Origin: an uncultured Candidatus Altimarinota bacterium
GTDB lineage: Bacteria > Patescibacteriota > Gracilibacteria > BD1-5 > JAGOOR01
Direction of reading: 5' to 3'
Length of the DNA: 37,926 bases
Assembly: GCA_937920005.1 (NCBI GenBank)
Contig: CALETF010000136.1
Span: 1 to 37,926, forward strand
Numbering within the stretch: the stretch's first letter is position 1; every line of letters starts with the position of its first letter. The notes under the pieces were generated by a model that was given only the letters and a program-made list of their open reading frames with translations, had not been told where the DNA came from and ran no database searches. Made by a program: the position numbers and the translations under genes. This document shows, piece after piece, positions 1 through 37,926 of the stretch.

Positions 1-668
1 ATACCAGCAAACAACTCATCGTCGAACACAACATGGGAAAATATCCTGATATCTCCAAGAAAGGAGCTCTCAGTATAGAAGATATCAGAAAGATCTATGA
101 AGACACTCAGAATAGGATTATGAATTGTGCCGTACTCAAATCCAAGTATGCACTCCATAAAAAAATCATAGACGACTACGACATATCAGAACGTGCAAAA
201 GGTATTCTCGAAAAAGCGAATAGCACTATAGAGAAACAAATATCAGAGCAAAAATGTGTGACCCCTCGAGATGGAGATAAAATATATAGCTATAAGGATC
301 TCCTCGATTCGATGACCTACGAACAATGTGGATACAATATGTATATGTATTATTATCAACAAAATGCTGAGAAAAATATAGGTGTTCTCTGAGCTGGCAA
401 ATCAGTCTATACCGTCTCAGAATGGGGAGAAGTCCTCTGAACAGAAAAAAACAAAATAGAACAAGAATACGATCTGACTCGTAGAACTATGGATACAGCC
501 CTCTCTCTGTATGAAAATTTTGAGAAGACCTATATTTCTCACGTACTTCTCGAGATGATAGAAGTAGAATTGACTGAAGATAAGCGCTATCTCGGAGGTA
601 CAGTTCGTGTCATACAGCAGCTTGTTTCTCTCTGGAAAAATGCACAGACAACTGAGGGAAAACGATAA
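1..668 (+). CDS. hypothetical protein, possibly 5-prime partial
   Basis: Track ORF 33..392 reads on through in-frame TGA at 390-392 and 438-440 to TAA 666-668. The frame is open back to base 3, so the start may be ATG 33 or upstream of the window. No family recognised. Confidence 0.55.
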
Positions 669-681
669 AATGGCTTTTTTC

Positions 682-709
682 TTTACTTTCACAAATTGTA
701 TACTATACT
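682..709 (+). promoter_or_regulatory. candidate sigma70-type promoter of the RRM gene (TTTACT-N16-TATACT)
   Basis: TTTACT at 682-687 and TATACT at 704-709. This would leave a leader of roughly 80 nt before ATG 798. Confidence 0.35.
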
Positions 710-797
710 GTGCCTATCGTCAGTGTTACGTGGTCAGTAGTGGTTTTTCCGCGAAGAGGCGTACAGGGTCGATACTTATTTTTTTCTTTTTTCAGTT

Positions 798-1133
798 ATG
801 GGCAAACGCCTTTTTGTCGGAAATCTTCCGTATCGTGTGACAGCAGACCAGCTCCGAGAAATTTTTTCTCAGAATGGTGAAGTAGTAGATGTATTTATTC
901 CTCTCGATAGAGAGACACGACGACCTCGTGGTTTCGCTCTCGTAGAAATGTCTACAGACGAAGAAGCAAATGCAGCTATCGCAGCTCACAACGGTGTTAC
1001 AGAAGTTTCTGATGATCGCGGACCTCGCGTTATCACTGTTAATGAAGCTCGTCCAAAAGAAGAGCGTCCTGCTGGCGGTCGCCAGGGTGGTTACAATGGT
1101 GGTGGTAACGGTGGTGGTGGAAATCGTTGGTAA
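798..1133 (+). CDS. glycine-rich RNA-binding protein with RRM domain
   Basis: Uninterrupted ORF ending TAA 1131-1133. Has RNP-2 LFVGNL and RNP-1 RGFALVEM motifs and a Gly/Asn-rich tail [19 protein letters not shown]. Confidence 0.9.
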
Positions 1134-1150
1134 TTCTCGAATATTCATCA

Positions 1151-1182
1151 AAAAAACTGCTCCTCTCAAGGAGCAGTTTTTA
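1151..1182 (+). terminator. rho-independent terminator
   Basis: Stem ctgctcc (1157-1163) pairs with ggagcag (1170-1176) and is followed by a T run. Confidence 0.7.
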
Positions 1183-1248
1183 TTTATACAAAACTTGCAA
1201 AATAAGTTCCAGAAATACAATGACAATACTTATTCTTTTTGTTTTTTT

Positions 1249-1683
1249 ATGAAATCTTTTCTCCTACTCTCGCTCTCCATCGTACTTCTGAGTGCTTGTA
1301 GCATTCAAAAAGCCGATATTTCAAATGCACCTACTGAGTCAACACCAGAAATAGAAGAAAACTCACCTATTGTTCCTACTCCAACAACAGCCAAAAAAGA
1401 AATAGAAGCAACTACAACCGAAACAAACAAGGATGATGAAATAGTCGCACTGGCTAAAACTGGCTTTACTGCAACAGAAGTAGCAGAACACAATAGTGCT
1501 ACAGATTGTTGGCTTATCCTCGACGGAAAAGTATACGAAGTAACAGACTTTATCCCTTCTCACCCAGGAGGAAAAGCAATCCTCAAAGGATGTGGCAAAG
1601 ATGCAACACAGATGTTTGCTGGACACCCAGAAAGTGCTAAGGCCATGAAAGAGAAATTCTACATTGGCGATCTCAAACAATAA
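1249..1683 (+). CDS. lipoprotein with C-terminal cytochrome b5-like heme-binding domain
   Basis: ATG 1249 lies inside track ORF 970..1683. Signal peptide with lipobox LLSAC, a Thr/Glu-rich linker, then [31 protein letters not shown]. Ends TAA 1681-1683. Confidence 0.8.
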
Positions 1684-1696
1684 TTCTAAAAAAACA

Positions 1697-1726
1697 AAAA
1701 CTCCCCGGTAAACGGGGAGTTTTTTA
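1697..1726. terminator. bidirectional rho-independent terminator between convergent genes
   Basis: Stem ctccccg (1701-1707) pairs with cggggag (1713-1719), flanked by an A run upstream and a T run downstream. Confidence 0.7.
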
Positions 1727-1734
1727 TTAGTTTT

Positions 1735-2571
1735 TTATTTACTTATTTTCTCAGTAATTTTTGGAAGAAGATTATTGAGACCATCAATAGCTCGAAGTGT
1801 TTCAACTGGGACCATCCAAATCGTGGTATTGGATTGATCAGAAGAAATATCATTGATAGACTGAAGTGTACGGAGGTGAAGTGCGCCTGGAGTGGTTGCA
1901 AGCATTCATGCTGCTTGTGCGAGTTTCTCACTCGCCAAAAGTTCGCCTTCTGCATCGATGATTTTTGCGCGTTTCTCCCTTTCTGCTTCAGCCTGTTTAC
2001 TCATGGTTCTCTTGAGAGATTCTGGGAGGTTCAAATCTTTGAGCTCAACAGAATGAATATTAACACCCCATGCCTCAGATTTTTCATCAACAATCATTTT
2101 TATTTTCTTACTTGCTTCTTCTTTGTTTGCAAGGAGTTCATCGAGCTCAAACTGACCAACGATATTTCGCATTGTCGTCATCGCGAATTGCATAATAGCG
2201 TACTCAAGTGCTCGCACATTTACTACTGATTTCATAGCATCATCAATTGCGTAATAGAGAACTGCATTGATGGTGAGAGAGACATTATCCTTGGTCATTG
2301 CTTCTTGTGAAGGGACATCAACTGCCCGTTCACGCATATCTACTTTTGTACAGGTCTGGATAAAAGGGATGATAAATCTCAATCCTGGTTCAGCTGTACG
2401 AGAATATTTACCAAGCGTAAAAATAACTCCTTTTTCGTATTGATCGATAATACGAATAGCAAGTGGTCATAACACCACACAGACGATAATAATAAAAGGG
2501 AGAAGTGAACCCGCGAGAACAAATAGTTCCATAATAAGAGAATAAAAATAAACATCTCCATTATAGACCAT
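1735..2571 (-). CDS. SPFH/band-7 (stomatin-prohibitin-like) membrane protein
   Basis: Track ORF 1906..2382 extends through TGA 1906-1908 and TGA 2467-2469. N-terminal TM helix, then IRIIDQYEKGVIFTLGKY and the band-7 core. True stop TAA 1735-1737. Alternative start ATG 2532. Confidence 0.8.
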
Positions 2572-2588
2572 GGCTCACTTTGTCCAAT

Positions 2589-4075: not shown

Positions 4076-4152
4076 GCGGACGTAGCTCAATTGGCTAGAG
4101 CTCCTGCCTTCCAAGCAGGTTGTTGTGGGTTCGAGTCCCATCGTCCGCTCCA
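4076..4152 (+). tRNA. tRNA-Gly(UCC): tRNA-Gly, anticodon UCC, CCA encoded
   Basis: Hand-folded cloverleaf: acceptor GCGGACG/CGTCCGC, D arm GCTC/GAGC, anticodon stem CCTGC/GCAGG with loop CTTCCAA, T arm GTGGG-TTCGAGT-CCCAT. Confidence 0.9.
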
Positions 4153-6402: not shown

Positions 6403-7860
6403 ATGGACTTCTCTACTGCTTCCCTCTCTGAGATACTGTCAGCCATTGCAAAGAACGAAACCACCAAACAAGCCGTCTGGGAACACTTCGCTCAAGTCAG
6501 GGATGTGCTCGATCCTGAGCTCCAAGCCTTCAATCACAAGACTGAGACTATGCCGACGCCTGCTGATGGTGTACTCTCAGGCATCCCACTTGCTATCAAA
6601 GACGTCTACAGCGAAGTCGGGGTTCCAACCACTGCCTCTAGCAAGATGCTCGAGAACTATATCGCTCCTTACGAATCGACTGCAACTAAGCGTCTCAAAG
6701 CGGCTGGTATGATAAGTCTCGGAAAAGTAAATCATGATGAATTTGCCATGGGAGCGACTGGTGAACACTCTGCACTCCGACTCTCTCGCAATCCATGGGA
6801 TCCAACTCGTGTCCCTGGTGGAAGTAGCTCTGGTTCTTCTGTCGCTGTCGCTTCAGGTATGGCACCTGTCTCTATCGCCACTGATACAGGATGAAGTATC
6901 CGCCAACCTGCCTCTCTCACGGGTGTCGTAGGATTTAAAGGAACCTACGGAAGTGTCTCTCGCTACGGTGTCATCCCGATGGCATCATCTCTTGATACGA
7001 TGGGCGTCCTCTCTCGCACTGTCCGTGATGCTCATCTCGTTTGGGACGCTATGCAGGGTCACGACCCTCTCGATGCGACGAGCCTCGACGGAAGAATAGA
7101 AGTCTCTCAGGATATTTGGAATCGTACTGATTTGAAGGGTGTCAAAATCGGTCTCCCAAAAGAATACTTCGGAGATGGTATCGAAGCTGGAACTCGTGAA
7201 ACGATTGAACAAGCCAAGAAAACTCTCACTGACCTCGGAGCAGAACTCATCGAAGTCTCTCTCCCCTCGACTGATTACGCGCTCGCTGCCTACTACGTCA
7301 TCGTCCCAAGCGAAGTCTCTACCAATCTCGCACGTTTTGATGGTGTACGATTCGGTCATATCACGGGCGAAGAATTCCGAGACTATGCAGACTGGATCAG
7401 TCATACTCGAAGTGAAGGATTCTGACCAGAAGCCAAGCGTCGTATCATGATCGGTACTTTTGCGCTATCATCAGGATTTTATGACGCGTACTACAATCGT
7501 GCTTCTCTCGTTCGAGAACTCGTGCGCCGTGAATTCGCTGAGACATTCCAAAAAGTTGATGTCATTGCCACTCCTGTCTCCCCTATGGTCGCATGGAAAA
7601 TCGGTAAGATGGACAATGACCCTCTCGCGAACTACATGGCAGACATCTTCACCGTCCCTGGTGCTCTCGCTGGTATCCCTGGACTCTCTGTCCCGGCAGG
7701 ATACGCCGCACCAGCCGACGACGCCTCTCTCCTCCTCCCTGTCGGTCTCCAGATCATGGGTCCAAAACTCGGAGAAGAAAAAGTCTTCACCGTCGCTCAT
7801 GTCTTTGAACAAGCGATGAAAGAGAAGATAGCAGAGAGAAAGCCGAAGGTTTTTAGATAA
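6403..7860 (+). CDS. gatA: Glu-tRNA(Gln)/Asp-tRNA(Asn) amidotransferase subunit A
   Basis: Track ORFs 6403..6894, 6979..7425 and 7447..7860 share one frame. TGA 6892-6894 falls in the amidase motif TDTG-G-SIRQPA and TGA 7423-7425 in GF-G-PEAKRRIM. GGSSSGS is present. Ends TAA 7858-7860. Confidence 0.95.
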
Positions 7861-8706: not shown

Positions 8707-8775
8707 TTTTTTAAGCTCTCCCTCAAAAACGCCACTGTCTTTAACCATGCATAGAGGGTTGCTGGCTCAGGGAAA

Positions 8776-9480: not shown

Positions 9481-9577
9481 AACTAACAGGTAATTATATT
9501 TATACCTATTAACATGCAAGAGTCTTTTTTGTTTTTGGTCACTTATACATTGCTGATTCAAGGACGATAATATCTTC

Positions 9578-13303: not shown

Positions 13304-13328
13304 AAAAAGAAAAATAAAAAATAAAAAA

Positions 13329-14018: not shown

Positions 14019-15020
14019 CTAGAGATTAATAAGCGGAGGAATAATACCCAGTCATGCCAATCATGCAAGCAATGCAAAAACACCAAGTCACAAAACAACA
14101 ACGCCTGCTGATTTGAAAAAAAGTGTTGCATACTTTGATTTTGAAAAACCCTCTGCACCAAATGAGAGAAGTGCTAGAACTGGGAAAGTACCGAGAGCAA
14201 ATGAGAACATAATGAGTCCTCCTGTGATGTAGGAACCACTAGAGAGTGCGGCGATTTGCATCGATTGAGTAAAACCACATGGGAGGAAAAAAGTACCAAA
14301 TCAGATGAAAATAGGGGTCAAAGTTTTGTGCTCTATTTTTCTGAATATCTGAAAAATTCCCGTCGGGAGTGTCATCTTGCTCTGTCTCAATATACCAACG
14401 AGATCAGCCCCGAGCAAAATCATAACTAGAGCTGCAAAAATACCGAGCAGGCTCGTGAAAAATTGATTTATCTCAACCACATGTCAGAGAGCACCAAGGA
14501 GTCATCAAAGAAATCAAAACCCCAACATCCTGGCTCCATGAAATAGTACAATATTTTTTCTATCACTGATGGAGTCCTGTGATATCTTCGCTGAAAGAGA
14601 TAATACGAGACCTCAAACAACAGCGAGACAACTCGATACTGATGCTATGAGACCTATCAAAAAACTCGTCACTGGTGTCACCTGTCCTCCGATACCGAAA
14701 TTGAGTATTCCTGATTTTTGAAGGAGGAAAAATATACCTAAAAATATCAACCCTATAGGCACGGCCTGCCAGAGGATGCCTTCTTTTTCTAGTGTGTGTT
14801 TTTCGAGCGAGAGAGTGTATCCATGAGAAGAGAGCTTTTCTGCTAACAGTGGAAATATTTTTCACGCATCAGCTTCTTCTGGCATATCAATAGTAACTAT
14901 TTTTTCTTTCATAATCACGTGCGTTTTTGATCCCTGTACGATTTCTTCGACGACATCTTCTACCAGTATTTTACAAGCATTGCAGTGCATGCCCTGGATG
15001 TGGTAAGTATATTTTTTCAT
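14019..15020 (-). CDS. HMA-domain fused to a DsbD_2/TauE-like polytopic membrane protein
   Basis: Absent from the track because of ten in-frame TGA by my count. ATG 15020 gives MKKYTYHIQGMHCNACKILVEDV (GMxCxxC), followed by about six hydrophobic segments including FFLPCGFTQS. Ends TAG 14019-14021. Confidence 0.7.
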
Positions 15021-15021: not shown

Positions 15022-17295
15022 TTAGAGTTTTTTAGCTTTTATGCGAAGTGAGTTACCGACGACTGAAACACTCGATGCTGCCATTGCTATGCCTGCGAAG
15101 ATAGGATTTAATAACCAACCAAAAAGAGGATAGAGAGCTCCCGCAGCGAGCGGAATTCCTACCATGTTGTAAATAAATGCCCAAAAGAGATTTTGTTTTA
15201 TGCCCATCATCGTTATTTTTGAGAGGTGAATAGCTTTCACTATTTTAGTGATATCACCATGTAGAATGACAATACCTGCACTTTCAATAGCTACATCAGT
15301 GCCAGTTGCCATGGCGATTCCAACATCCGATTGAGCAAGAGCAGGAGCATCATTGACACCATCTCCTACCATTGCAACGATATGATTTTCTGACTGTAGT
15401 TCACGTATCTTCATCAATTTATCTTCCGGAGATACTTCAGCAAAAAAGTCTCCAATACCGACCAGTTTGGCTATATATTCGGCAGTATTTTTTGCATCCC
15501 CTGTCATCATAATGATTTTTACACCGAGCTTTTTGAGCTGGATGATAGATTCTTTTGCTTCTCATTTTAATGCATCTGCCACAGTAATAATAGCGAGTAC
15601 TTGATTTTTACTTGCGAGAATAATAGGCGTTTTACCTTCTTGCGTTTCTTGGTTTATGAGTTCAGTATTATAGTCGAGCTTGAGGTCGTCCATTAAACGA
15701 GTATTTCCGACGAAATATTCTTCTTTTCCTATATTTCCCTGGAGTCATTTTCACTGTATTGAGATAAAGTTTTTAACAGGATGAAGGGATATATCTTCTT
15801 TCTCAGCATACGATACTATCGCTTCAGCAATCGGGTGCTCAGAATATTTTTCAAGAGAAGCAACAATGCCTATCAGCTCCTCATCTGATTTCTTTGAGAG
15901 ATTATGTATTTTTTGAAATTCTGGCTTTCCTTTGGTGAGAGTACCAGTCTTGTCCAAAATAATTGTATCGACATTATGGAGCTTTTGGAGAGTGGCAGCA
16001 TCTTTGATGAGTATTCCTGCGTTTGCTCATTTGCCTACTCATACAATAATCGCAGTGGGCGTAGCAAGTCCAAGAGCGCATGGACATGCGATGACGAGAA
16101 TACTAACAAAAGATACGATACCCAGAGAAAGTGCTGTAGAGAAACCGAGATATGCAGTCCCGACAGTCAGCCAGGCTCAAAATGTCAGCAGGGATAATAT
16201 GAGTACCACAGGTACAAATACGGCTGAGATTTTGTCCGCAAGTGCCTGAATAGGAGCTTTGCTACTCTGAGCTGTTTCTACCATTTTTATGATTCGAGCA
16301 AGCATAGTCTCTGATCCGATTTTGGTTGCCTGAAATCGAAATGCCCCAGTGGTATTGATAGTTCCTGCAATGACATTATCGCCAATATTTTTTTCTGTAG
16401 GAATCGGCTCACCAGTAATCATAGACTCATTGATAAACGAGCTTCCCTCCAAGACAACACCATCAACAGGGATTTTTGCACCAGGTTTTATGATGATGAT
16501 ATCGCCATGTACTACTTCTCCGAGCGGTATTTCTTGTTCTTTATTATTTCGAACAACAAGAGCTGTTTTGGTTTGTAGATTGAGGAGCTTCTTGATGGCA
16601 TCACCTGTTTTACTTTTAGAGCGAGCTTCGAGGTACTTCCCGAGTGTGATAAAACCTATGACGACTATGGTAACATCAAAATAGGTATACTCTGGCAAAA
16701 GAAATGTCTCTCGCACAACAGGAAAAAGAGTAATAATTATGCTATAAATATACGCAGTGAGTGTCCCAATACCAATCAATGTATCCATATTTGCGACACG
16801 GTGTTTGATAAAACGAGATACCCCGAGTAAGAATGGTTTTCCAATCCAAAAAAGCGTCACAGTCGCGAGAATCATGGAAATAATATTAAACATTTCCATT
16901 GGAAGAGGCAGCCGTGGGACAGTAATGAAAATCTGAGCAGCTATATCCCACATCATGAGTCAGAATACGAGAAATGTGATAGGGAGTACGAATTGTACTT
17001 TTTCCCGCTCTACTTCCATGACTTCATGATTTATATCGTGAGCGCTGTGGTCGTGCTCAGTATTCATTATTTTTTCACTATTTTCTGTATCAGAAAAACT
17101 GTATCCGAGAGGCTCAAGTACCTGATTCATTTTTTTAATATCAGTTTTTTGTGGATCAAAATCAAGAAGGGCTGTTTCTGTCCCAGGATTTACCTCAATA
17201 TGCTCTATTCAGGGTATTTTTGAGATTTTTCTCGTGATGATATTAGCGCAGCTTGCACAATGCATACCATGTACTTGAAGAGTTGTATTATTCAT
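15022..17295 (-). CDS. copA: copper-translocating P1B-type ATPase
   Basis: Track ORFs 15022..15510, 15751..15957 and 16177..16956 plus the N-terminus are all in one frame, joined only by TGA codons. Motifs: HMA GMHCASC, TGEP, CPC (IACPCALGLATP), DKTGTLT, MTGD, GDGVNDAP. Ends TAA 15022-15024. Confidence 0.95.
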
Positions 17296-18141: not shown

Positions 18142-18843
18142 CTACATCCTGATGCCGCATTTTTCGACGTTTTTCAGAGCAATCTGCCTGAATAATTCGA
18201 GCTCATGCTCCGAAAAACTCTCTCAAATAAAGTCTGGACTAAGCGTATTTCCCGAACGATAGTTCTGCAGATAATAGTGTCATGCCCCAGAAATAGCCTG
18301 CGTGATATGCTCTATGTCTTCATATGTGTGAATGCCCTTTATCACAGTAGTACGAAATTCATACTCTGGAAGTCGTGTACGAATTATTTCAATGCTCGCC
18401 TTGTAGAGATTGATATCTATTTTTTTTTCGCTCACCACTTCATAGCGGTCGAGAGGATACTTGATATCCATGGCAATGTAATCAACCAGATTTTCGGTCA
18501 ATAATTTCTCGAGTACTTTCGGCTTACTTCCATTCGTATCCAGCTTCACGAGAAAACCTGTCTCCTTTATCTTACGACAGAAATCAGGAAGATCGGCATG
18601 AATAGTTGGCTCCCCCCCACAGATAACGACTCCATCGATAAGTCCTGCTCTCATTTTTAAGAATCTAAAAAAAATATTCTCACTAATAAAATCATGAGAG
18701 ATTTTTTGGATTTTTTCTGGTAAAACAAACTCACTATTATGGCAATATCCGCAGCGGAGATTACATCCTGCTGTGAAAACAATCGTAGCGACCTTTCCAG
18801 GATAATCGAGAAGAGTGCATTTTTTTATGCCAGAGAGCATCAT
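18142..18843 (-). CDS. nrdG: anaerobic ribonucleoside-triphosphate reductase activating protein (radical SAM)
   Basis: Track ORF 18280..18843 has CNLRCGYCHN (CxxxCxxC). It reads through TGA 18280-18282 and 18223-18225 (GHYYLQNY...) to TAG 18142-18144. Confidence 0.9.
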
Positions 18844-19066: not shown

Positions 19067-21283
19067 CTATCATTCAGTGCCTGTCACAACTTCCTCGAGA
19101 ACTTTCATTTTCTTCTCATCTGCCGTATAGGATTCACGGAATTGTATATCATATTTCTTCCCATGATACCCGAGCTCTTCATCGCATTTTGGACAGTAGT
19201 CATGTTCGCCTTTGATATAACCATGCTTTGGGCAAATCGAGAAAGTAGGTGTTATAGTGATATAGGGAAGCTGGTAGTTTGAGATGACTTTTTTGACGAG
19301 CGCTTTGCATGCTTCTGCATCTGTGATACGTTCACCCATATAGAGATGGAGAACAGTCCCCCCTGTATATTTACATTGGAGCTCGTTCTGGTACTCGAGT
19401 GCTTCGAAGGCATCATCTGTGAAATTGACAGGGAGCTGTGAGGAATTTGTATAGAATGGATTCTCTGAAGTTCCCGATTGTATGATGCTGGGAAGTTGTT
19501 TTTGATCTTCTTTAGCAAAACGGTAGGTAGTTCCTTCCGCTGGAGTCGCCTCGAGATTGTACATACTGCCTGTTTCTTCTTGGTATCCTTTGAGAATTTC
19601 TCGCATGTATTCGAGTGTTTCTATTGCAAATTGCTTTCCCCAGTCTGTCGATATATCCTCCCTTCCCTCAGTAAAGTTTTGAATTGACTCATTCATACCA
19701 TTCAAGCCAATAGTGGAAAAATGATTCCTAAATGAGCGAAGATACCTATATGTATAGGGATAGAGTCACTTCTCGAGCCATTCTGTGAGGACTTTTCTCT
19801 TTATCTCCAGAGAGGTTTTTGCTAAGTCCATGAGATACTTTACCCGCTTACGGAAAGCGATCACATCTCCCCTATTGATGTATCCTATACGAGCCATGTT
19901 GATGGTGACAACACCGATAGATCCTGTCATTTCCGCTGATCAGAAAAGTCCATTACCTCTTTTCAAAAGTTCCCGAAGATCAAGCTGGAGCCGACAGCAC
20001 ATCGACCGTACAGCGCCGGGCTTATAGGCCTCTTCGTTCTCTATAATCATATTATTGCCATTTTCATCTTTCACTCTCTTGTATTGTGAACCAATGAAAT
20101 TCTGAAAATAGGGCAGGCCGTACTTCGCTGTCATTTCAAATATTCGCAATGTATCAGGAGATTCCCAGGGAAAATCTTGCGTGATATTATACGTTGGAAT
20201 CGGAAAGGTGAATGCTCGTCCTTTGCTGTCTCCGGCAGAATACACCTCTATAAGCGCTCGATTGATGATGGCTCTTTCTGTGTCGAGTTCACTAAATTTT
20301 TTAACATATTGTCCTTTGCCATACCCTCCGAGGAAAAGTCCCTTGTCAGCTAAATCTGTAGGACAGGTCCAGTCAAGAGTGATATTGGTGAAAGGAGTCT
20401 GGGTTCACCAGCGAGACGGTACATTGAGACCAAAAACAAAATTCTGCATCTGCTGATAAACATATGAATATGTTTTTTCTGTTATATATTTTTCCTTCTC
20501 TGTCTCGCTGGAAAAAGAAATTCCATACGTTTCTATATCTTTCCTTATTTCCTCGGTATGTTTGTGGACGAAAGGAGACAAGTAGGTATCAAATGAAGAA
20601 AATGCCTGAGCGCCAGCCCATTCATTTTGGAGCGTTCAGAGGAAATTGATCATCTGATTGACCGCTGCCTGCAGATTCCGTGGAGGAGCCGATTCAATAC
20701 GGTTTGGCATACCATTGAATCCCTCTTCAAGAAGCTGACGAAGACTCCAGCCAGCACAATATCCAGAGAACATATCGAGATCATGGATGTGATAATCTGC
20801 ATTTCTGTGTGCATTTCCTATCTCAGATGGATAGATATGAGAGAGCCAATAGTTAGCTGTTATTTTTCCAGAGGTATTGAGAAGAAGACCTCCAAGAGAA
20901 TATCCAGAATTAGCATTTGCATTCACTCTCCAATCCGATTTATTGAGATATTCATCCATCGTCTTGCCGACTTCGACGACAACTGAACGGTCTGCTCGGG
21001 ATGTTGACCGTTTTTCACGGTAGAGAATAAAAGCTTTTGCTACTTGATTATGTCCGTATTTGGTGAGAATTTCCTCTATACTATCTTGGATATACTCCAC
21101 GTCAGGGAGATCTGTTCCTGTTTTTTCCCTTACATGCCTCACAACCTCATCAGTCAATGTAGGGATATGAGAAAAATTTTCTCACCCTACTGCCCCAATA
21201 GCTTTCTGGATAGCTAGCTCTATTTTTGTACGATCAAAAGTAACGATTGCACCATTCCTTTTTCTCACTTTATAAATGACCAT
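19067..21283 (-). CDS. nrdD: anaerobic ribonucleoside-triphosphate reductase large fragment (ATP-cone, barrel and Zn site, no glycyl-radical motif)
   Basis: Track ORFs 19070..19705, 19940..20245 and 20636..21157 are in one frame and joined only by TGA; I translated every gap by hand. ATP-cone MVIYKVRKRNGAIVTFD, then RSMCCRLQLD, TGSIGVVTINMARIG and ICPKHGY...CPKC. Ends TGA then TAG (19067-19069). Confidence 0.9.
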
Positions 21284-22133: not shown

Positions 22134-24518
22134 TTAAATTCCTCGCAACATATATCACTCACCGGCAAGTTTTTGGACAACTGCTTCCTGCACTTTCGCA
22201 GCCTCGTCATCAGTAATAGTCTTCTCTGGATTTCTAATCAGAAGAGACACGACGACTGATTTTTTATCAACACCGATATGCTTTTCATCACGATATATCT
22301 CGGTGACCCCAATATCAGATATCCACGCATGTGATTTGCGAACGAGGTCCACAAGAGTAGCAACTGGTGTCGTCTCTGGCATGATGAAATTAAACTCTCG
22401 ACGTGTTCCTGGGAATTCAATAAGAGGAGTGAATTTGATAGCTCGATGAAGTGCTGGCATTTTCACAATCTCAAAAGCGTAGATATCAATACCCTCAATA
22501 TCAAAGAGTGGAAGAAGAGTGGGACGTATGAGACCAAATCGGAGAGCTGCCTCACCTGATTCATCTACTATCTCACCATATGCCTTTGGGGCAAAAAGTT
22601 TCGTATCAGAGGCACCCTGAGTTATCATACCTGGTGTACCAAAGTAGGTCATCATATAACTCGTGAGATGTTCTTGGAGACTATCAAAAGTACGACCCCA
22701 GAGAACACCGAGACCTTGGAGAGATTCTTCACCATCAAATATCGGACCAAACTCAAAGAACGCACCATCGGTATGACTGCGGTAATTGTTTGCGACGAGT
22801 TCGAGGAGGTTCTCAGCCATATGAGCACGGAGATGTGTCCTATTTTCTGTTGTATTGTGAATGATAGCTGGTTTTTTATCAGAGAATCGTGTAAATCTCT
22901 CATCCAGTGTAAAAGGATATGTATAGGCATCAAAATATCCTCTGTCAGCAAAAAATCCAGTGATACTCCGAGTGATAGCATCATGAGACTCGACACGAAC
23001 AGTTGCGAGAGGTCCAGGTAATGGCTGCCCCTGGATTGTTTCGTAGCCAATATGTCGTGCGACCTCTTCGACTACATCCTCTGGGATACTAATATCCCCA
23101 GTATCTCTCCAAGAAGGAACTGTGACAGAGTAGATTCATTTCTTTGATGACACTTCAAAACCGAGACGTGTGAGTATACCCTGCACTTCTTTTTCTGGTA
23201 CTTCTTTTCCGATTTTTGCTACGAGCATCTCGTGAGTGAGAGTGAGTTCTGATGGAGTATATGAGGTAGTCATAACCGACTGCTTCCCTTCAGTGACTCC
23301 TGGTACAAAAAATGCGAGAAGCTCAGCGTATCGTGTCTGAGCTCGATGAGGGCTGGTTCTATCGACTCATTTTTCGAATCGCATAGAGCTATCAGTTCGG
23401 ATACCGAGACGTTGAGATGTTTTGCGTACTGTCACAGGATCAAATGAAGCAGACTCTACATAGATACGACGAGTTGTCTCGGTCGTTCCTGATGATTTTC
23501 CACCCATGATACCTGCGAGAGCGAGTATTTGTTTCTCATCGACGATCACGAGGTCCTCTGGAGTAAGTGCGTATTCCTTTCCGTCGAGACCAGTAAACAT
23601 TTCTCCTTTTTTTGCCATACGAAGAGTGATGTTTCCGGCAATGATATCAGCATCAAACACATGCATTGGTTGGCCTATCTCGGTCATCACCATATTCGTG
23701 AGGTCTGGGAGGAGTCCGTGTGTCCCTTGGTTTGAACGAAAGAGTACAGTCTGCACGAGAAAAGGCGACACTGGAAGCTCTGGAAGTGTATACTCTGTGA
23801 GGAGATAGTTCATAACTGCCTCTGATGCCACTGTTACGTTGAGACCATTTGTGTCTTTCAGGGGCTTTGACGGTACATAGGAGAAATCGGTTTTTTCTAT
23901 ACAGGCTATTTCTCGGGCATTTCAAATAACAGAAAAAAGATCTGGTCGATTGGTGATAAATTTGTTATCCAGATCAAAGACGACATCGTTCATGGCATAC
24001 TCTATATCACCATCGTGTCCTGGAAATGAGAGTGTGAGTTCACCAAATGGCTTTCAGAGATGTTTCTCGAGAGTTTTTTCATCCCAGACAGTTTCCAGAG
24101 GAAATATGCCTTCTGCTCTTGTTGTTTGCAGTCCGAGCTCATCGAGACTACAAATCATACCACAACTATCAACCCCTCGAATAGCTCGTCGAGCGATTAC
24201 GAGACCTCCTGGGAGCTCAGCGTGTTCGAGAGCAACTGGGACGTATTTTGATGTCCGAGCATTTGCCGCACCACACACTATCTCATGCTGACCATTTTTA
24301 CCAGCATCAACCTGTACGAGTCCGAGCTTATCAGAATCAGGATGTGGTTTCCATGCGAGGACTTTTCCAACTACTATTCTATCATCATAGATATACGTGT
24401 CGATACCCTCTACTTCGGCAGTATAGGTGGAGTACGTATGAGAGAATTGTTCGAGAGATTCAGGGGTATACTCAGGGACTTGAGTCCAGTGACGCGCCCA
24501 ATTAAGAGAGATTTTCAT
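22134..24518 (-). CDS. pheT: phenylalanine--tRNA ligase beta subunit
   Basis: Track ORFs 22155..22820, 23367..23831 and 24054..24518 are in one frame. The gaps, translated by hand, contain only TGA. N-terminal tRNA-binding domain (VVGKVLAWKPHPDSDKL), then NRPDLFS, and a C-terminal FDX-ACB-like domain. The track stop TGA 22155 is read through to TAA 22134-22136. Confidence 0.9.
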
Positions 24519-26351: not shown

Positions 26352-27308
26352 CTAGAGCCACTCTACTTCTATTCCCCTCCCCCTCACGAGCTGAGCACGA
26401 AATGGCTCCAGAAATGAAACCATATTTGGAGAACGAATAAGTATCTTTTGTCGGTACTTCCCTGCCCTTTTTTCAAAGAGAAGATGATCGTAGAGGACAG
26501 TTGTGTCTGATGTATGTTTTGCTGCTTCTATCATCGATGAAGCAGTACTCGCTATTCGTTGCTGCACAACTGATTCACTTGAGTCACTAATATAGACAGT
26601 CACCATCTGTGTAAACGGTGGGAGATGAAATTGTTTTCGTTCTGTCACTGTTTTTTGGAAAAAAGATCGGAAATTCCCGCTCGTTACTTCAGTAATAAGA
26701 GGAAGCTTTGGTGAGCGAGTCTGGAGAATAATATCTCTTGAGCGATAAAAAAAATGTCGAATCTGTTGATACATGCTCTCCTCGATGTCATAGTCTGGAA
26801 CGGCCAAATCAGACTCAACGAGGAGAAAAGCTGTGAGCCCGAGATTCTCGATAGGAAGAGAGGATATTTTTTGGGTTCCAATAAATATGTCATATTCAGT
26901 CAGCGTCTTTGGTGTGACCTTATTCAGGTCTTCTATGAGGAGAATTCGTGCCTCGGGAAGCAGTTCTCGCACATGTGTATCAATCGATTGGACTCGAGCG
27001 CCACTCTGAACGAGATGATAGGAATGACATTGGGGGCATTTTTCTGGGAGAGATCACTTTGATTCACAAAAGTGACACAAGAGAGAATTCTCTGGTTTGG
27101 TATGAACTCGCATCAAGAGATCACACGAAGGACACCTGGCAGCCCATCCGCAATCACGGCAGACAAGAGTGCTCATAGCACCTCGACGATTGAGAGAGAG
27201 AAGTATTTTTTCGCCACGAGCAAGTGTCTCCTGCATTCTCCCAAAAAGAACCTCTGAGATAAGAGGTTTGACTGGACGAATCTGATTCATGTCTATGACG
27301 GTGATCAT
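26352..27308 (-). CDS. priA: PriA-like protein, C-terminal half only (Zn-binding Cys cluster, degenerate helicase lobe 2, C-terminal domain)
   Basis: Track ORFs 26352..26972 and 27054..27308 are in frame across TGA 27054-27056. Has LSLNRRGAMSTLVCRDCGWAARCPSCDLLMRVH...LLCHFCES-G-SLPEKCPQC. No Walker A/B region is present and the space upstream is occupied by nrdR. Ends TAG 26352-26354. Confidence 0.7.
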
Positions 27309-27754
27309 TCTTCGAATTCTTCGAGGATAAACTTCACGAAGTCGCTATGACTCTCAAAGTGATTGTAGACTGAAGCAAATCGCAAACAGGCAACTTCATC
27401 AATATCTTTGAGCTTATGAAGGACATCCTTTCCTATTCTCTTCGAAGTAACCCCATTTTTATTCTCTGCCCACTCGATTTCTAGCGTATTAATCATTGAT
27501 TCTATTTTTTCAGGTGGAATATTTCTCTTGTTGCACGCTTTGAGGATACTTGTTTCGAGTTTTGAGCGATTGTATAGTTCTTTTTTACCAGATGTTTTAT
27601 TCACGAAAAAACTCACGAATTCCATACGTTCAAATGTCGTGAAACGGGCTTCGCATTTTTCACATTCACGACGACGACGAATAGAGAGTCAATCTTCTGA
27701 GAGGCGTGAATCTATCACACGAGTTTCGAGATTTTTGCATTTAGGGCAGCGCAT
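27293..27754 (-). CDS. nrdR: transcriptional repressor NrdR (Zn ribbon plus ATP-cone)
   Basis: ATG 27754 gives [42 protein letters not shown] with TGA 27689-27691 at the conserved Gly. The track stop TGA 27305-27307 is read through (GSPS) to TAG 27293-27295, so the gene overlaps the priA-like start by 16 nt. Confidence 0.9.
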
Positions 27755-30013: not shown

Positions 30014-30044
30014 GTTGCTTTGTTATTTAAATAAGTTGAATACA

Positions 30045-31538
30045 ATGGCGCCCATGAAGAAACTCATCACTACCGCTATTCCATACATGAATGGTGTGCC
30101 TCATATCGGTCATGCACTCGAAATTATCCTGACGGACGTCATCGCTCGTGGTCATAGACTCCTCGGAGAAGATGTATTTTTCCTCACAGGAGCTGACGAA
30201 CACGGAAGTAAAATATTCAAAGCTGCCGAAACAGCAGGGGGAGATGTAATGAAAATGCTCGATGAAAATGTGCGTCATTTCCAAGATATGAATACAGCGC
30301 TCTCTATCTCAAATGATGGCTATATACGAACAACAGATAAGAAAAAACACTGGCCCGTCGTCCAAGCGCTCTGGATGAGACTCTTTGATAACTGAGATAT
30401 TTACAAAAAAGAATACGCTGGCTGGTACTGTGACCGAGAAGAGCGTTTTGTAACAGAGGAAGAACTCGATGAGAATAAATGCCTCAAAGAAGGTGGCGCA
30501 CCAACACGCTGGACCGAAGATGAGAACTATTTCTTCAAGCTCAGCAAATACAGCGACACTATAAAGAAAAAACTCCAAAGTGGTGAAGTAAAAATCACTC
30601 CAGAATTCAGACAAAATGAGATGATTGCCATGATTGGTGATGGACTCGAAGATGTGAGCTTCTCGCGTACAAAAAAACAACTCACCTGGGGTATCCCAGT
30701 CCCAAATGATCCAGAACACGTGATGTACGTCTGGTGTGATGCTCTCACGAATTACATCTCTGGTGTCTCCACGGGGAACATCGAAGAAGATTTCAAAAAC
30801 TGGAACTGTGAGCTCCATGTCATCGGCAAGGATATCTCACGATTCCACTGCCTCACATGGATTGGCATGCTCCTCTCTGCGGGGATCAATTTACCGAAAA
30901 ATATCCTCGTACACGGATTCGTAAATGATAAAGATGGTGCGAAGATGAGTAAATCTGTCGGAAATGTCATCGATCCTCACGCGATGATAGCAGAATATGG
31001 TTCTGATACCGTTCGTCTCTATATGACGAGCGAAGTAGGCGTCGGACAAGATCTCAATTTCTCTGATGAGCGTATCAAATCTGTTCACAATGATGTCCTC
31101 GCAAACAACTATGGAAATCTGGTGAATCGTGTGCTTTCGCTCTGGATTGCTCACCGCGATAAAGGTGAGACTATACCGGTCATCCCAGAAACTTCTCCAG
31201 CTATCTTGGATATAGTGAATGACTATAAAAACATGCTCGGAAAATGGATTAATACGAGCAGAATGTTCATTGATGCTGATACAGTCCTCAATATGGCTAA
31301 TAATATGCTCAACACCACTGAGCCTTGGAAAAAATCAGGTGAAGAAAAAGGAAAACTCTTGGTTGAAGGAATTGTCTACGTCTACTATGCAACACTCCTC
31401 CTCTCCCCTTTTATTCCCGAGGCAACGAGTAAAGTCATGAAAGTCATGGGAATAAAAGAAGATACAAAACTCGATGCCCCTATTTCGATAGACCTGAATA
31501 CTATTACAAAACCGGAGATATTGTTTGTGAAGAAGTAA
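30045..31538 (+). CDS. metG: methionine--tRNA ligase (short form)
   Basis: Track ORFs 30015..30395 and 30621..31538 are in one frame, joined through TGA 30393-30395. HIGH motif PHIGHALE and KMSKS are present. Start is ATG 30045 or 30054. Ends TAA 31536-31538. Confidence 0.9.
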
Positions 31539-31579: not shown

Positions 31580-32758
31580 ATGAATATCTCGAAATCACAT
31601 CACATTCACTGAGCCCCAAACACAAACTGAATAAAACTCAGAAAACTTTCTAGTAGACTCTCTCTGAATCTCGCATTCAGTGTAGCCCTGATATTGTGTT
31701 GATGTTGAAAAAAAGAAGAAGTCTCATCAGTGACAACAGCAGAAAGCGTGCAAAACATGACAGATGAAGAAAAAAATATAGCTATAGCTCTAACAATTAT
31801 CGATAACCATCTCGGAAGAGAACGTGTAGAAATCCCGGAACACACAGCACAACAAAATATCTTTATCAATAATATCATTCAATTGCTTTGAGCCTATGAA
31901 TGAGATGAATTAATGAACCAAGTTCGAGAGATATATAATAATCAAAAGAAAAACAATAGACCTGTTCCCTTCCCGTTTGATCCAAACCAATGCAAAAATA
32001 CAGAGGATTTTGTACGAGAGAGTAGGAAGTATCTCTCTACCCTATCGATTTACCTGACATGACAGGGTATATCACAGGGTATTTACGAGTACGATATTTC
32101 AGACAAGAACTTGCAGTGCGCTGGGAAGCCTATCCGGAAAATAGTTATTTCACATGAAGAAACTCTCTTTGAATGACGTGTAATACCTGATGACGGAGTC
32201 ATACTTCTAAACCTGCAAGCGCTTGGGACAAATGTTTTTATCAATAAAAAAATATGACTCCCCCCTGAAGTAATGATCTGAGGAGTCATAGCAAATGAGC
32301 TCTGAAATTGTGAATTTTACACTGATTATGATATTTCTAAAGTTTCGAGAAATGATGCGTTTAGACTATCAGAAGCATATAGCACCATGAAAACACTCAA
32401 ATCATACGAAACTTCTGCTACAGTAGGAGGTATGCTCATGCTAACAGAGTGTATCAATAGCCATTTTAGTGCGATTATCTGATTTGATGCATGAATATGA
32501 GTGGATTATGATATCACTCATGACTGCGTGCTCAGAGCACATAAAAAAATACTGCCTCTCTACGCTGAAGAATATCCTGACTTAGCTGCCATTTTTGAAA
32601 CAAACGATGATACAATAAAAGAAAAAATAAAGTGAGTACAGAGAAAAATCGCAAAAAATCCTGAACGATACAATAATCTAGGAAAACTATTCTTAGAAAA
32701 ATATGAACAAGCTTTCCGTGATTTGTGTCGAGAGAAGTGAGCTCGTATAAAAAAATAA
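31580..32758 (+). CDS. hypothetical lipoprotein (392 aa), invisible in the ORF track
   Basis: ATG 31580 to TAA 32756-32758 with 16 in-frame TGA by my count. Signal-like LSLNLAFSVALILCGCGKKEE, where both Gly residues are TGA-encoded. No family recognised. Confidence 0.55.
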
Positions 32759-33247: not shown

Positions 33248-35126
<1,879 letters not shown>

Positions 35127-36621: not shown

Positions 36622-36627
36622 GCAGGC

Positions 36628-36633
36628 ATTGTA
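36628..36633 (-). promoter_or_regulatory. -10 box TACAAT, 6 nt upstream of the gpmI ATG (leaderless configuration)
   Basis: Plus-strand attgta at 36628-36633; the ATG is at 36619-36621 on the minus strand. Confidence 0.4.
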
Positions 36634-36654
36634 GAAAAAATCTCAAAAATTCTA

Positions 36655-36683
36655 GCACAAAAAAATCTTCAGACTTGAAGATT
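36655..36683 (-). terminator. rho-independent terminator after the tRNA pair
   Basis: Stem aaatcttca (36662-36670) pairs with tgaagattt (36675-36683), with a T run on the minus strand. Confidence 0.65.
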
Positions 36684-36688
36684 TAAGA

Positions 36689-36764
36689 TTGGTGGACCTG
36701 GCTGGGATCGAACCAGCGACCAACAGGTTATGAGCCCGCTGCTCTAACCGCTGAGCTACAGGTC
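36689..36764 (-). tRNA. tRNA-Met(CAU): tRNA with CAU anticodon (elongator Met or lysidine-modified Ile2), CCA encoded
   Basis: Reverse complement folds as GGACCTG-TA-GCTC..GAGC-A-GCGGG-CTCATAA-CCTGT-TGGTC-GCTGG-TTCGATC-CCAGC-CAGGTCC-A-CCA. The G1-C72 pair and imperfect GGG/CCC in the anticodon stem argue against an initiator tRNA. Confidence 0.85.
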
Positions 36765-36791
36765 CACGGTTACAGAAAATGCGAGTAAACA

Positions 36792-36885
36792 TGGCGGCGG
36801 GAGAGGGATTCGAACCCTCGCGGCAACTTTTGGTCACCCTACAGGATTAGCAATCCCGCCCCTTCAGCCTCTTGGGTATCCCACC
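36792..36885 (-). tRNA. tRNA-Ser(GCU): tRNA-Ser, anticodon GCU, long variable arm, CCA encoded
   Basis: Reverse complement: acceptor GGTGGGA/TCCCGCC, anticodon stem-loop CGGGA-TTGCTAA-TCCTG, long variable arm, T loop GGTTCGAATCC. Confidence 0.85.
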
Positions 36886-36901
36886 ATAGTTTACGGTGTG
36901 G

Positions 36902-36929
36902 ATTGTATGAAAAGTTTCTCTAGGAGCAA
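36902..36929 (-). promoter_or_regulatory. promoter of the tRNA-Ser/tRNA-Met unit (TTGCTC-N16-TACAAT)
   Basis: Plus-strand gagcaa at 36924-36929 and attgta at 36902-36907. The tRNA 5-prime end lies 16 nt downstream of the -10 box. Confidence 0.5.
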
Positions 36930-36933
36930 ATTT

Positions 36934-37422
36934 TTATTCTTCTTCTTCGGGAGAATCTTGATCTATGGCATCATCATCGTTTTGATTGGGAGTCAAATCG
37001 TCCTCTTCCCCGTCTTCATCGAAGCCCATATCAACCATATTTTCTTGTTCTTCTTTTTTTACCTCAAGGAAGTGTATGAGTCTGAGAATATCTTTTTCTG
37101 AGAGATCATTGCCAAAGAGGTCGGCATAATCTCGTATTTCTGATGGCGCATTGCGAAATATATTCCAATACATCATACCTGGCTCTTCGAATCGATTGAT
37201 GAGGAGATTATTGAGGAGGAGAAGTACTCGTCTATCGTCTCCTTCTGCTTCATCATAGTAAGGAATCATTGAAGTCAGGTGTGATTGGACTTCGAGTTCG
37301 TGAATTTTGTGCGCTTTTTGTGTTTCTTCGGCTATTCTCTTCTTTTCCACCGCATAGTAATCATCTTCTTCAAATGCTGAACCTACTGGACTCTCTGGGA
37401 TATGCTTTTTTTGCATTGTCAT
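36934..37422 (-). CDS. hypothetical acidic protein (162 aa)
   Basis: Uninterrupted ORF ending TAA 36934-36936. Strongly acidic C-terminal tail DEDGEEDDLTPNQNDDDAIDQDSPEEEE. No family recognised. Confidence 0.6.
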   Translation of the reverse strand: MTMQKKHIPESPVGSAFEEDDYYAVEKKRIAEETQKAHKIHELEVQSHLTSMIPYYDEAEGDDRRVLLLLNNLLINRFEEPGMMYWNIFRNAPSEIRDYADLFGNDLSEKDILRLIHFLEVKKEEQENMVDMGFDEDGEEDDLTPNQNDDDAIDQDSPEEEE

Positions 37423-37451
37423 AGGGAGGAAAAGTACTACAATTCTAGTAA

Positions 37452-37926
37452 CTATTTACCACAAAATCAAACCTTATGAGGTTGACGAAAACCCTTCTTC
37501 ATACCACAGAGAGTTATATCCAGAGACTCGCTCGTGGATGAATAGAAACGGTAGAGGATTTGTTGCTCTTTTTTCCGCGTGATATAGAGAATACTGCTGA
37601 CGTCCTCGATTCTTTTGCGTACGTCAATATCCAAGAAAAAAACACGATAAAAGTCACCCTCATCAATATCCTCCAAGAACGAACAAAATTTCAAAAAAAA
37701 CTCACAAAATTTCTCGTCGCTGATAAAAATGGTATGTCTTCGGAGTGTGTCTTTTTTCATACACCGTATTTCAAATTCCCGATTAAACCAGGCGATACGA
37801 TCATCCTCCATGGTAAACCAAAATACGAATACGGGAAACTCTCTTTCCCGCAGCCAGACATAGAGCTCTTTGATGAGAAACGTCAGGCATATCTGCCTAT
37901 CTATACAGAAATACAAGGAATCAACA
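37452..37926 (-). CDS. hypothetical protein, N-terminus probably outside the window
   Basis: Track ORF 37467..37916 begins at a TTG and the frame is open to the window edge. The track stop TGA 37467-37469 is read through (GFCGK) to TAG 37452-37454. Confidence 0.5.

Follow-up and report, generated by a model that had tools for sequence, protein, structure and literature searches.

The question raised by this locus is whether TGA, which recurs in frame within its conserved genes, is read as a stop codon or as an amino acid, and which amino acid that would be. The window, a stretch of 37,926 nt that is apparently a complete contig, since the L25 protein occurs on one of exactly this length, had been examined in an earlier sequence-only reading, in which TGA was proposed to encode glycine rather than tryptophan, TAA and TAG to be the only real stops, and the open reading frames of the standard code to be misleading. 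The analysis described here shows that UGA is an ordinary glycine sense codon in this contig, interchangeable with GGN, that UAA and UAG are the sole terminators, and that no further reassignment is present.

Gene content with TGA as a sense codon

With TAA and TAG as the sole stops, a codon-usage-scored set of 38 well-supported genes was obtained at a coding density of 91%, the total rising to 41 when weak ORFs are counted; the about 45 intact genes anticipated earlier were thus not recovered. In-frame TGA codons numbered 103 and were spread over 31 of the 38 genes, five of these codons being supplied by two weak gene calls (G09 and G29). The 37 complete genes ended in TAA (25) or TAG (12) and in no other codon, as had been predicted. 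Under table 11, pieces of at least 60 aa spanned just 64% of the window, and no such piece existed for G07, G15, G29, G30 and G32; with a possible sixth gene of this kind, the weak ORF at 7885-8706, this matches the six genes said to be missing from the standard-code track. On either strand, TGA occurred at approximately double the frequency of TAA or TAG, and ORFs of at least 300 aa numbered 23 when TGA was treated as sense, as against 10 for TAA and 5 for TAG. Pfam domains and PDB alignments were continuous over the TGAs, for example in Amidase (41-461 of 485), full-length enolase, CopA, PheT and MetRS. The principal features are listed in Table 1.

Table 1. Features of the window discussed in the text, with in-frame TGA codons
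Feature	Coordinates	Strand	Length (aa)	TGA positions	Domains and remarks
tRNA-Gly(UCC)	4076..4152	+			ARAGORN; ordinary GGA/GGG reader, not UGA decoder
gatA	6403..7860	+	485	6892, 7423	Pfam Amidase (E=6e-123)
HMA + DsbD_2 membrane protein	14019..15020	-	333	10 TGAs	Pfam HMA, DsbD_2
copA P-type ATPase	15022..17295	-	757	17209, 16960, 16177, 16039, 16027, 15751, 15745, 15562	Pfam E1-E2_ATPase, Hydrolase, HMA
nrdG activase	18142..18843	-	233	18280, 18223	Pfam Radical_SAM, Fer4_12
Glycyl-radical ORF	18845..19036	-	63	18851	NrdD glycyl-radical motif TRVMGYYRP
nrdD large ORF	19067..21283	-	738	21182, 20636, 20405, 19940, 19766, 19070	Pfam NRDD (E=1.5e-168); 19070 immediately 5' of TAG stop
pheT	22134..24518	-	794	24054, 23922, 23367, 23136, 22155	Pfam B3_4, B5, tRNA_bind, FDX-ACB
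nrdR	27293..27754	-	153	27689, 27305	Pfam Zn_ribbon_NrdR, ATP-cone
metG (MetRS)	30015..31538	+		30393	Pfam tRNA-synt_1g
Lineage-specific ORF	31580..32758	+	392	16 TGAs (4% of codons)	No Pfam match
eno	33248..34552	-		34025	Pfam Enolase_N, Enolase_C; start likely MFILEK, about 34498
recG N-terminus	37476..37926	+		37539	Pfam RecG_wedge; leaves contig end

Were UGA still a stop, the genes would have to be pseudogenised, wrongly assembled or left in fragments by genome degeneration, and fragments are indeed what standard-code callers report on every public copy of the locus. Gene calls on ENA and Logan assemblies consist of table-11 fragments, public contigs of the same organism being split exactly at the TGAs (eno, for instance, into 157 and 246 aa), which bears out the warning about the standard-code track. 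However, all 103 interruptions involve one codon, TAA and TAG interrupt none of the conserved genes, and domains stay in frame past the TGAs. Identical TGAs were also present in independent assemblies from several samples, and across metagenome-assembled genomes (MAGs) at 55-99% identity they were either conserved or exchanged for GGN without frameshifts. These comparisons already refute the reading of UGA as a stop, to which we attach a negligible probability.

Residues and codons aligned with TGA

In PDB homologues, which derive from standard-code organisms, glycine occupied 13 of the 27 alignable TGA positions (binomial P 3.8e-8 against a background of 8% Gly), and neither tryptophan nor cysteine occurred at any of the 27. 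The remaining 14 positions were non-Gly in distant homologues, all of them in variable or indel-rich columns. TGA was found on glycines of conserved motifs, namely GatA DTGGS, enolase NGG and CopA GxGKG. Seven coordinates singled out in the sequence-only reading (6892, 34025, 27689, 16039, 16027, 15751 and 15745) all proved to be in-frame TGA codons of the genes named, and the six peptide motifs quoted there are all present in the corresponding ORFs. Its further claim, that such codons fall on invariant glycines, held for the named sites of GatA, enolase, NrdR and CopA, each of which is Gly in structures, but failed for the NrdD site GNGLF[TGA]S, which is Gly or TGA inside the lineage and S and V in PDB relatives.

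A codon-pair test was conducted with 88 pairs of orthologous genes drawn from nine related MAGs. TGA stood opposite a different codon in 258 columns, and in 188 (73%) of these the partner was GGN (GGA 82, GGT 62, GGC 25, GGG 19), though the columns share phylogeny and are not independent, so that the raw tally exceeds the true number of independent events. TGA was opposite TGA in 86 columns, opposite Ser codons in 21 and opposite Arg codons in 10, the non-Gly partners including the single-nucleotide neighbours TCA (13), CGA (6) and AGA (3); TGG or TGY was the partner in none of the 258 non-identical columns. This profile resembles that of the GGN codons themselves, and identical-codon conservation was 25% for TGA and 28% for GGA. 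TGG was opposite Trp in 93% of cases and opposite TGA never. All remaining codons were standard in the same comparison: Arg codons made up 78%, 64% and 71% of the non-identical columns of CGA, CGG and AGG, respectively, with none pairing with TGG. A tryptophan meaning of CGA and CGG, of which the window contains 134 and 27, is accordingly ruled out for the contig's clade.

One competitor is table 4, the code of Mycoplasmatales and of several insect endosymbionts, in which UGA stands for tryptophan. In its favour, the long ORFs recovered with table 25 are equally recovered with table 4, and at least one public pipeline gives the organism's GatA a W at both TGAs, one public entry thereby carrying Trp at two conserved glycines. 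Against this reading are the absence of Trp from the structural columns, the absence of TGG from the orthologue columns despite its own conservation, and the position of TGAs on the motif glycines given above. Amino acid composition also tells against it: Trp content would nearly double, from 0.95% to 1.85%, whilst Gly content rises from 5.9% to 6.8% once TGA is counted as Gly, in which case TGA makes up 13% of all Gly codons in the contig. The tryptophan reading is extremely improbable, having already been refuted by the PDB and orthologue columns.

TGA codons of individual genes

Several genes illustrate the pattern. Both TGAs of gatA are G in 4/4 GatA structures, that of eno in 3/3 enolase structures and that of metG in 2/2 MetRS structures, and the TGA at 27689 of nrdR is G in NrdR structures and GGN in 5/6 orthologues. 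Of the eight copA TGAs, five are G in CopA structures and three lie in variable columns (V, I, E/S). For pheT, three of five are G in PheT structures, and 7/8 orthologues have GGN at 24054 and 23922. At each of the five internal TGAs of nrdD, most of the 4 orthologues have GGN or TGA, and GGN occurs one or more times; these positions correspond to other residues in distant PDB relatives. The gene for the HMA and DsbD_2 membrane protein, of which table 11 leaves no piece of at least 60 aa, has GGN or TGA in orthologues at 9/10 sites. The lineage-specific ORF is likewise undetectable under table 11; in its orthologue on L013 (76% identity), 14 of the 16 TGAs are retained, the others being GGT and TCA.

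The glycyl-radical ORF is a real separate gene, because its frame differs from that of nrdD in three relatives. At the contig end, recG (coding score 53.7) was preferred over a minus-strand ORF at 37452-37925 (score 10.1), which is rejected as a wrong-strand shadow of it, the Pfam RecG_wedge match lying in recG; the remainder of this gene (DEAD/Helicase_C) is present on L001.

TGA codons close to gene termini

Several genes had been held to extend beyond the stop assigned by the standard code. This was borne out for nrdG, which continues for 46 codons after its first TGA to reach its true C-terminus, and for pheT (7 codons), nrdR (4) and the glycyl-radical ORF (2), and fell away for the supposed gene at 37452, the recG shadow. 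In nrdD, the glycyl-radical ORF, nrdR, G32 and pheT, the true stop is preceded by a TGA at a distance of 0-6 codons.

Such conserved near-terminal codons, in particular the TGA-TAG end of nrdD and the C-terminal TGA of nrdR, could mark a context-dependent dual use, with UGA encoding glycine internally and terminating, or being leaky, at some C-terminal sites. Of the 103 TGAs, five are among the final 7 codons of a gene, where about 2.3 were expected; the end of nrdD has TGA directly before TAG or TAA in four genomes, and the nrdR codon at 27305 is also TGA in 6/6 orthologues. However, the enrichment near stops is weak (P about 0.08), the terminal TGA of pheT is matched by Gly in the single PheT structure whose alignment reaches it, and a simpler account is that ancestral UGA stops turned sense and the protein was extended to the next UAA or UAG. 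Moreover, termination at UGA requires release factor 2 (RF2), reported absent from BD1-5 genomes (PMC6851277). A dual meaning is considered very unlikely.

Decoding tRNA and release factor

As noted previously, the tRNA-Gly of the window has the anticodon UCC and not UCA, and ARAGORN detected no UCA-anticodon tRNA in the 37,926 nt. Nor was a tRNA-Gly(UCA) found in the examined loci of the organism and its close relatives, which for the organism comprise ~49 kb (the 38 kb contig and ~11 kb of flanks), and no release factor gene was found in the same ~49 kb. In a metagenome scan, 27 tRNAs with a UCA anticodon and the identity elements for Gly were retrieved, almost all of them from contigs recoded at TGA. 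In other recoded genomes tRNA-Gly(UCA) occupies a conserved site upstream of infC-rpmI-rplT, where it heads a tRNA cluster, and it was present in every examined contig that extends far enough upstream of infC.

These tRNAs also bear on a reading of UGA as selenocysteine, or as a site of programmed readthrough, since ARAGORN labels UCA-anticodon tRNAs 'SeC' by default. Those retrieved fold as ordinary cloverleaves of 74 nt, carry Gly identity elements and lack the long arm of tRNA-Sec. Furthermore, the TGAs, 103 in all, are distributed over 31 of the 38 genes, those of ribosome-unrelated and membrane proteins among them, and in no column is a Cys codon opposite TGA. Absent Cys pairing and site density already refute this reading, and hardly any weight is left to it.

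For UGA as glycine, knowledge of the lineage and the related genomes point to a dedicated tRNA-Gly with anticodon UCA and the glycyl-tRNA synthetase (GlyRS) identity elements G1-C72, C2-G71, G3-C70 and U73. GlyRS, which has been described as charging tRNA-Gly(UCA) (PMC13293708), would load it with glycine, and the tRNA would then read UGA. The gene prfB is reported to have been absent from the BD1-5 genomes then available (PMC6851277), and loss of RF2 would leave no competitor for the codon.

Lineage and public records

Taken jointly, the evidence is almost certainly best explained by the use of table 25, with UGA as glycine, on a contig that probably comes from uncultured Gracilibacteria/Absconditabacteria (BD1-5/SR1; GTDB class JAEDAM01; Patescibacteria/CPR). 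This recoding is a textbook feature of the lineage and is catalogued as NCBI table 25. It has been known since 2013, with Campbell 2013 and Rinke 2013 credited for it in PMC8629427, with proteomic validation by Hanke 2014 as reported in PMC6851277. The code of the contig is plain table 25, and the reading proposed earlier is a correct re-discovery of it.

Of nine related GTDB genomes, with PheT identities of 71-94%, four bear the title Candidatus Gracilibacteria and five uncultured Candidatus Peribacteria; the closest genomes themselves contain in-frame TGAs. To our knowledge, 'Candidatus Peribacteria' is a group without reported recoding. The label on close relatives looks like a naming artefact, because one MAG that also carries it is clearly recoded and has a UCA tRNA. 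Several MAGs filed under this name, and close L25 relatives so annotated in NCBI, are the basis for an alternative placement of the contig's clade, outside canonical BD1-5/Absconditabacterales and in a lineage now assumed to use table 11. This placement is unlikely; if true, UGA as glycine would have a wider phylogenetic range or a deeper origin.

The value of the result is practical. Glycine-translated GatA, enolase, NrdR and EVE were absent (0/4) from a collection of 15 billion proteins. Analyses of function, completeness, homology and structure prediction for this contig must use table 25, and relatives labelled 'Candidatus Peribacteria' may receive table 11 annotation by default.

Comparison with known genetic codes

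The contig is alike to the table 25 group (Gracilibacteria BD1-5/GN02 and Absconditabacteria SR1; JAEDAM01) in having UGA at conserved glycines, UAA and UAG as the only stops and interchange of UGA with GGN, and also in its moderate-to-low GC content (41% here), CPR-type gene set and Gracilibacteria-labelled relatives, the UCA-anticodon tRNA with Gly identity elements being seen in related recoded genomes. Nothing substantive differs, the NCBI label of several close relatives aside.

Table 4 is used by Mycoplasmatales, Hodgkinia, Zinderia, Nasuia and others. UGA is likewise a sense codon in these systems, loss of RF2 is the presumed enabling step, and gene callers that switch automatically to table 4 recover full-length ORFs; the difference is that UGA there encodes tryptophan and here glycine, as neither TGA/TGG pairs nor Trp in PDB columns were found. 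In the extended code of Absconditabacteria, UGA as glycine is combined with CGA and CGG as tryptophan (Shulgina and Eddy 2021, PMC8629427). The UGA reassignment is common to both, whereas the Arg-to-Trp reassignments are missing from the contig's clade.

Gene calls under alternative genetic codes

The window (37,926 bp) has a GC content of 40.8%, and on both strands its TGA count is about double that of TAA or TAG. When TGA was read as a sense codon, 23 open reading frames (ORFs) of at least 300 aa were obtained, versus four under table 11 (UGA as stop). Because the removal of any stop codon lengthens ORFs, control counts were made with TAG or TAA as sense, which gave five and ten such ORFs, respectively. 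A greedy longest-ORF gene call was dropped since it chose several wrong-strand shadow ORFs; the final gene set came instead from re-calling the window with a codon-usage score that had been trained on confident genes. This set comprised 38 genes at 91% coding density with 103 in-frame TGAs, and its 37 complete genes terminated in TAA (25) or TAG (12). Table-11 pieces of at least 60 aa from these genes cover 64% of the window, and five genes yield no such piece, or six counting the weak ORF 7885-8706.

These counts are consistent with the six genes that the sequence-only reading had found missing from the standard-code ORF track, as well as with its proposed C-terminal extensions past track stops. 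All seven of the TGA coordinates it listed were in frame as given, and the quoted peptide contexts (6/6) were present in the corresponding ORFs. Its figure of about 45 genes was too high, the re-call giving 38-41, and the minus-strand ORF 37452-37925, which it had taken for a gene, is a shadow of recG on the plus strand (coding score 10.1 versus 53.7 for recG). The recG product matches Pfam RecG_wedge, and the gene runs on into DEAD/Helicase_C on public contig L001.

Identity of the residue encoded by TGA

Nine proteins, with TGA translated as X so that alignment was not biased, were aligned to solved structures from standard-code organisms. Glycine occupied every alignable TGA position of GatA (2/2), enolase (1/1), NrdR (1/1) and MetRS (1/1), as well as 5/8 in CopA (others V, I, E/S) and 3/5 in PheT (others D, E/D). 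It occupied none in NrdD (0/5; the structures are very distant relatives), the RumA-like protein (0/2; indel-rich region) or the Band 7 protein (0/2; I, M). In sum, glycine was found at 13 of 27 positions, for which the probability of 13 or more is 3.8e-8 at 8% background glycine, and tryptophan or cysteine at none. The invariant-glycine sites suggested earlier thus held for GatA, enolase, NrdR and CopA; that in NrdD was not borne out, the residues being S and V in two structures.

A PheT scan of GTDB genomes retrieved nine related metagenome-assembled genomes (MAGs; 71-94% identity) in which the gene order of the window is largely conserved. Across 88 orthologue pairs, whose columns are not phylogenetically independent, TGA was found opposite TGA (86 columns), GGA (82), GGT (62), GGC (25), GGG (19) and codons for serine (21), arginine (10) and lysine (9), and never opposite TGG, TGT or TGC. 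Glycine codons made up 73% of the 258 non-identical partners, which matches the GGN codons' own profile (66-81%), and the non-glycine partners included the single-nucleotide neighbours of TGA, namely TCA (13), CGA (6) and AGA (3). At the 60 window TGA sites with orthologue cover, at least one GGN was present in 31 and TGA alone in 20, with other residues at the remaining nine, which are variable positions. The TGA sites of NrdD were judged by lineage orthologues, as its PDB relatives were too distant (E ~1e-36); four orthologues carried GGA, TGA, GGG and TGA at the site in question, so it is a glycine within the lineage, though not universally.

The absence of TGG and TGY partners argues decisively, in our codon comparisons, against tryptophan, cysteine and selenocysteine, despite the non-independence of the columns. 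Table 4 (UGA as tryptophan) is accordingly excluded by structures and orthologues alike, and selenocysteine by the lack of TGT/TGC partners; pseudogenes or assembly errors were also excluded by the tests run. Counting TGA as glycine raises that residue from 5.9% to 6.8%, and counting it as tryptophan would nearly double the latter (0.95% to 1.85%). The observation of in-frame TGAs was confirmed, and the interpretation of UGA as glycine rather than tryptophan is supported by both the structure and the orthologue codon tests.

Distribution of TGA along genes

TGA density differs strongly by gene, with extremes at 31580-32758 (+), 14019-15020 (-), 29444-30013 (+) and 35131-36621 (-). No TGA occurs in iPGM (496 aa), L25 and five others, one occurs in each of enolase and MetRS, and two in GatA. 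TGA-rich genes include a lineage-specific ORF (16 in 392 codons), the HMA+DsbD_2 protein (10/333) and gene G30 (6/189). TGA seems to be avoided by conserved, presumably highly expressed genes.

Several TGAs lie 0-6 codons ahead of the true stop, at 19070 (nrdD), 27305 (nrdR), 18851 (glycyl-radical ORF), 32738 (gene G32) and 22155 (pheT). A dual meaning, in which UGA still terminates at these sites, draws weak support from their number, five in the last seven codons versus approximately 2.3 expected; however, the excess is weak, and ancestral UGA stops turned sense are a simpler account. The end of nrdD reads TGA-TAG in the window and TGA-TAA-TAG or TGA-TAA in relatives, and the near-terminal TGA of nrdR is TGA in 6/6 orthologues. 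These codons may be fossil UGA stops that have become sense.

Gene content

Pfam matches, none of them interrupted by TGAs, identified genes of translation and nucleotide metabolism (GatA, PheT, MetRS, L25, NrdD, NrdG, NrdR), glycolysis (enolase, iPGM) and metal handling (CopA, the HMA+DsbD_2 protein, two DUF305 proteins). Others were a RumA-like methyltransferase, a Band 7 protein, a GT4 glycosyltransferase, an EVE protein, LysE, a rhodanese, a cytochrome-b5 lipoprotein, a PriA C-terminal fragment and the RecG N-terminus.

Features of the window outside the code itself
Feature	Position	Strand	Remarks
Metal-handling cluster	12623-17886	-	DUF305, small secreted protein, HMA+DsbD_2 membrane protein, CopA P-type ATPase, second DUF305
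nrdD and glycyl-radical ORF	18845-21283	-	also in relatives L005, L010, L011, L012
PriA C-terminal part only, 318-aa ORF	26352-27308	-	sub-threshold weak PriA_C match, Cys-rich zinc-binding motifs
273-aa ORF	within 7885-9738	+	7 TGAs, without Pfam match
G09, 320-aa ORF	within 7885-9738	-	weak coding score

The nrdD product (738 aa) covers positions 2-529 of the 562 of Pfam NRDD and ends at a real stop, and the glycyl-radical motif (TRVMGYYRPVSQFNNGKKSEF) resides on a separate 63-aa ORF. In the window this ORF is in frame with nrdD, with a TAG and 10 codons between; in three relatives it lies in another frame, which excludes TAG readthrough joining the two. We thus interpret the split class III ribonucleotide reductase, from the frames of its relatives, as a conserved two-gene arrangement. 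The 318-aa PriA-type ORF shares 16 nt with the end of nrdR; its conservation at full length in eight relatives (81-91% identity) suggests that a truncated PriA is the usual form in the clade.

The metal-handling cluster is kept in part in relatives L005, L011 and L012, and on public contig L151 a metal-sensing repressor (Trns_repr_metal) adjoins a DUF305 gene. GC is lowest in the contig at 7885-9738 (36.7%), where gene content is uncertain and a foreign or fast-evolving insert may lie. The left end of the contig (3-668, +) continues in ENA contig NODE_475 (L150 1-2946), whose genes encode DUF8128 and DUF87/TrwB_AAD_bind (conjugation or secretion-type ATPase) domains. A gene for an RRM_1 RNA-binding protein at approximately 798-1133 was merged into G02 in the final gene set.

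Decoding tRNA and release factor

The window encodes tRNA-Gly(UCC), tRNA-Met and tRNA-Ser, and a UCA-anticodon tRNA was found neither there nor in the flanks or the nine relatives' loci. A pattern scan of metagenome contigs (loci among L014-L133) for tRNAs with glycine identity elements and a UCA anticodon returned 27, nearly all on clearly TGA-recoded contigs. Most form one tightly conserved 74-nt family with the anticodon loop CUUCAGC (position 37 = G), approximately 65% identical to the tRNA-Gly(UCC) of the window, and at least 12 of the loci have the tRNA upstream of infC-(rpmI)-rplT-rplU-rpsM-rpsK. Such tRNAs are wrongly labelled tRNA-SeC by ARAGORN.

A profile search for L20 returned 1,538 matches, and look-ups of P0120, P0007, P0066, P0049, P0003 and P0079 led to other samples. 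The UCA tRNA was also present on all additional contigs retrieved through L20 that extend far enough upstream, where it leads a tRNA cluster (UCA, Ala, Tyr, Arg, Glu); among them are a Candidatus Gracilibacteria genome from NCBI and a MAG labelled 'Candidatus Peribacteria' whose calls are fragmented. The order, seen in L134, L139-L142, L147 and L148, is tRNA(UCA), Ala/Tyr, Arg(UCU), Glu(CUC), infC-rpmI-rplT-tRNA-Leu(UAA)-rplU-infA-rpsM-rpsK. A UCA-anticodon tRNA would be expected elsewhere in the present genome, and RF2 is presumably lost from it. prfB was undetected in all BD1-5 genomes available to Sieber et al. (PMC6851277), and GlyRS charges tRNA-Gly(UCA) (PMC13293708).

Public records and lineage labels

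Sequence identical to the window is present in ENA (ERZ650265/267/269/292) and Logan (SRR6231133/156/204/210), and the gene calls on those copies are standard-code fragments, for instance enolase (157+246), EVE (62+96), MetRS (302+116) and GatA (163+148+137). Wrong-code records were noted on L001-L004 and L150-L157 (proteins P0138-P0145). By exact look-up, one ENA entry holds a full-length GatA with tryptophan at both TGAs, and all four glycine-translated proteins tested (GatA, enolase, NrdR and EVE) were absent from a 15-billion-protein collection. The L25 protein is recorded on a contig of exactly 37,926 bp, and the window is thus apparently a complete contig. SRP286056 represents municipal wastewater and river water according to the literature. 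Table 25 is required for translating this contig and those of its relatives, the current public protein records being wrong or fragmented.

The nine related MAGs are labelled Candidatus Gracilibacteria or uncultured Candidatus Peribacteria. The latter appears in NCBI/ENA titles of close relatives and of other clearly TGA-recoded MAGs with the UCA tRNA (L005, L009, L010, L011, L013, L148, P0036, P0049, P0161); the calls of L148 are fragmented, for example IF-3 split 95+76. In current taxonomy Candidatus Peribacteria is a class of Peregrinibacteriota, outside JAEDAM01, the class in which GTDB places table-25 users. The label on recoded MAGs is probably a taxonomy-mapping artefact, and it invites default table-11 annotation.

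Comparison with known recoded lineages

The reassignment of UGA to glycine is already known for this lineage; a passage of PMC8629427 credits it to Campbell 2013 and Rinke 2013, and its confirmation by proteomics (Hanke 2014, PMC4032931) is stated in a passage of PMC6851277. PMC8629427 describes additional Arg-to-Trp reassignments in Absconditabacteria, and also one of CGG in some Gracilibacteria. When the partner test was extended to all codons, no deviation was detected besides TGA, and CGA, CGG and AGG were found opposite arginine codons. Unlike those groups, the present clade is thus without extra Arg-to-Trp reassignments, and its code is therefore plain table 25.
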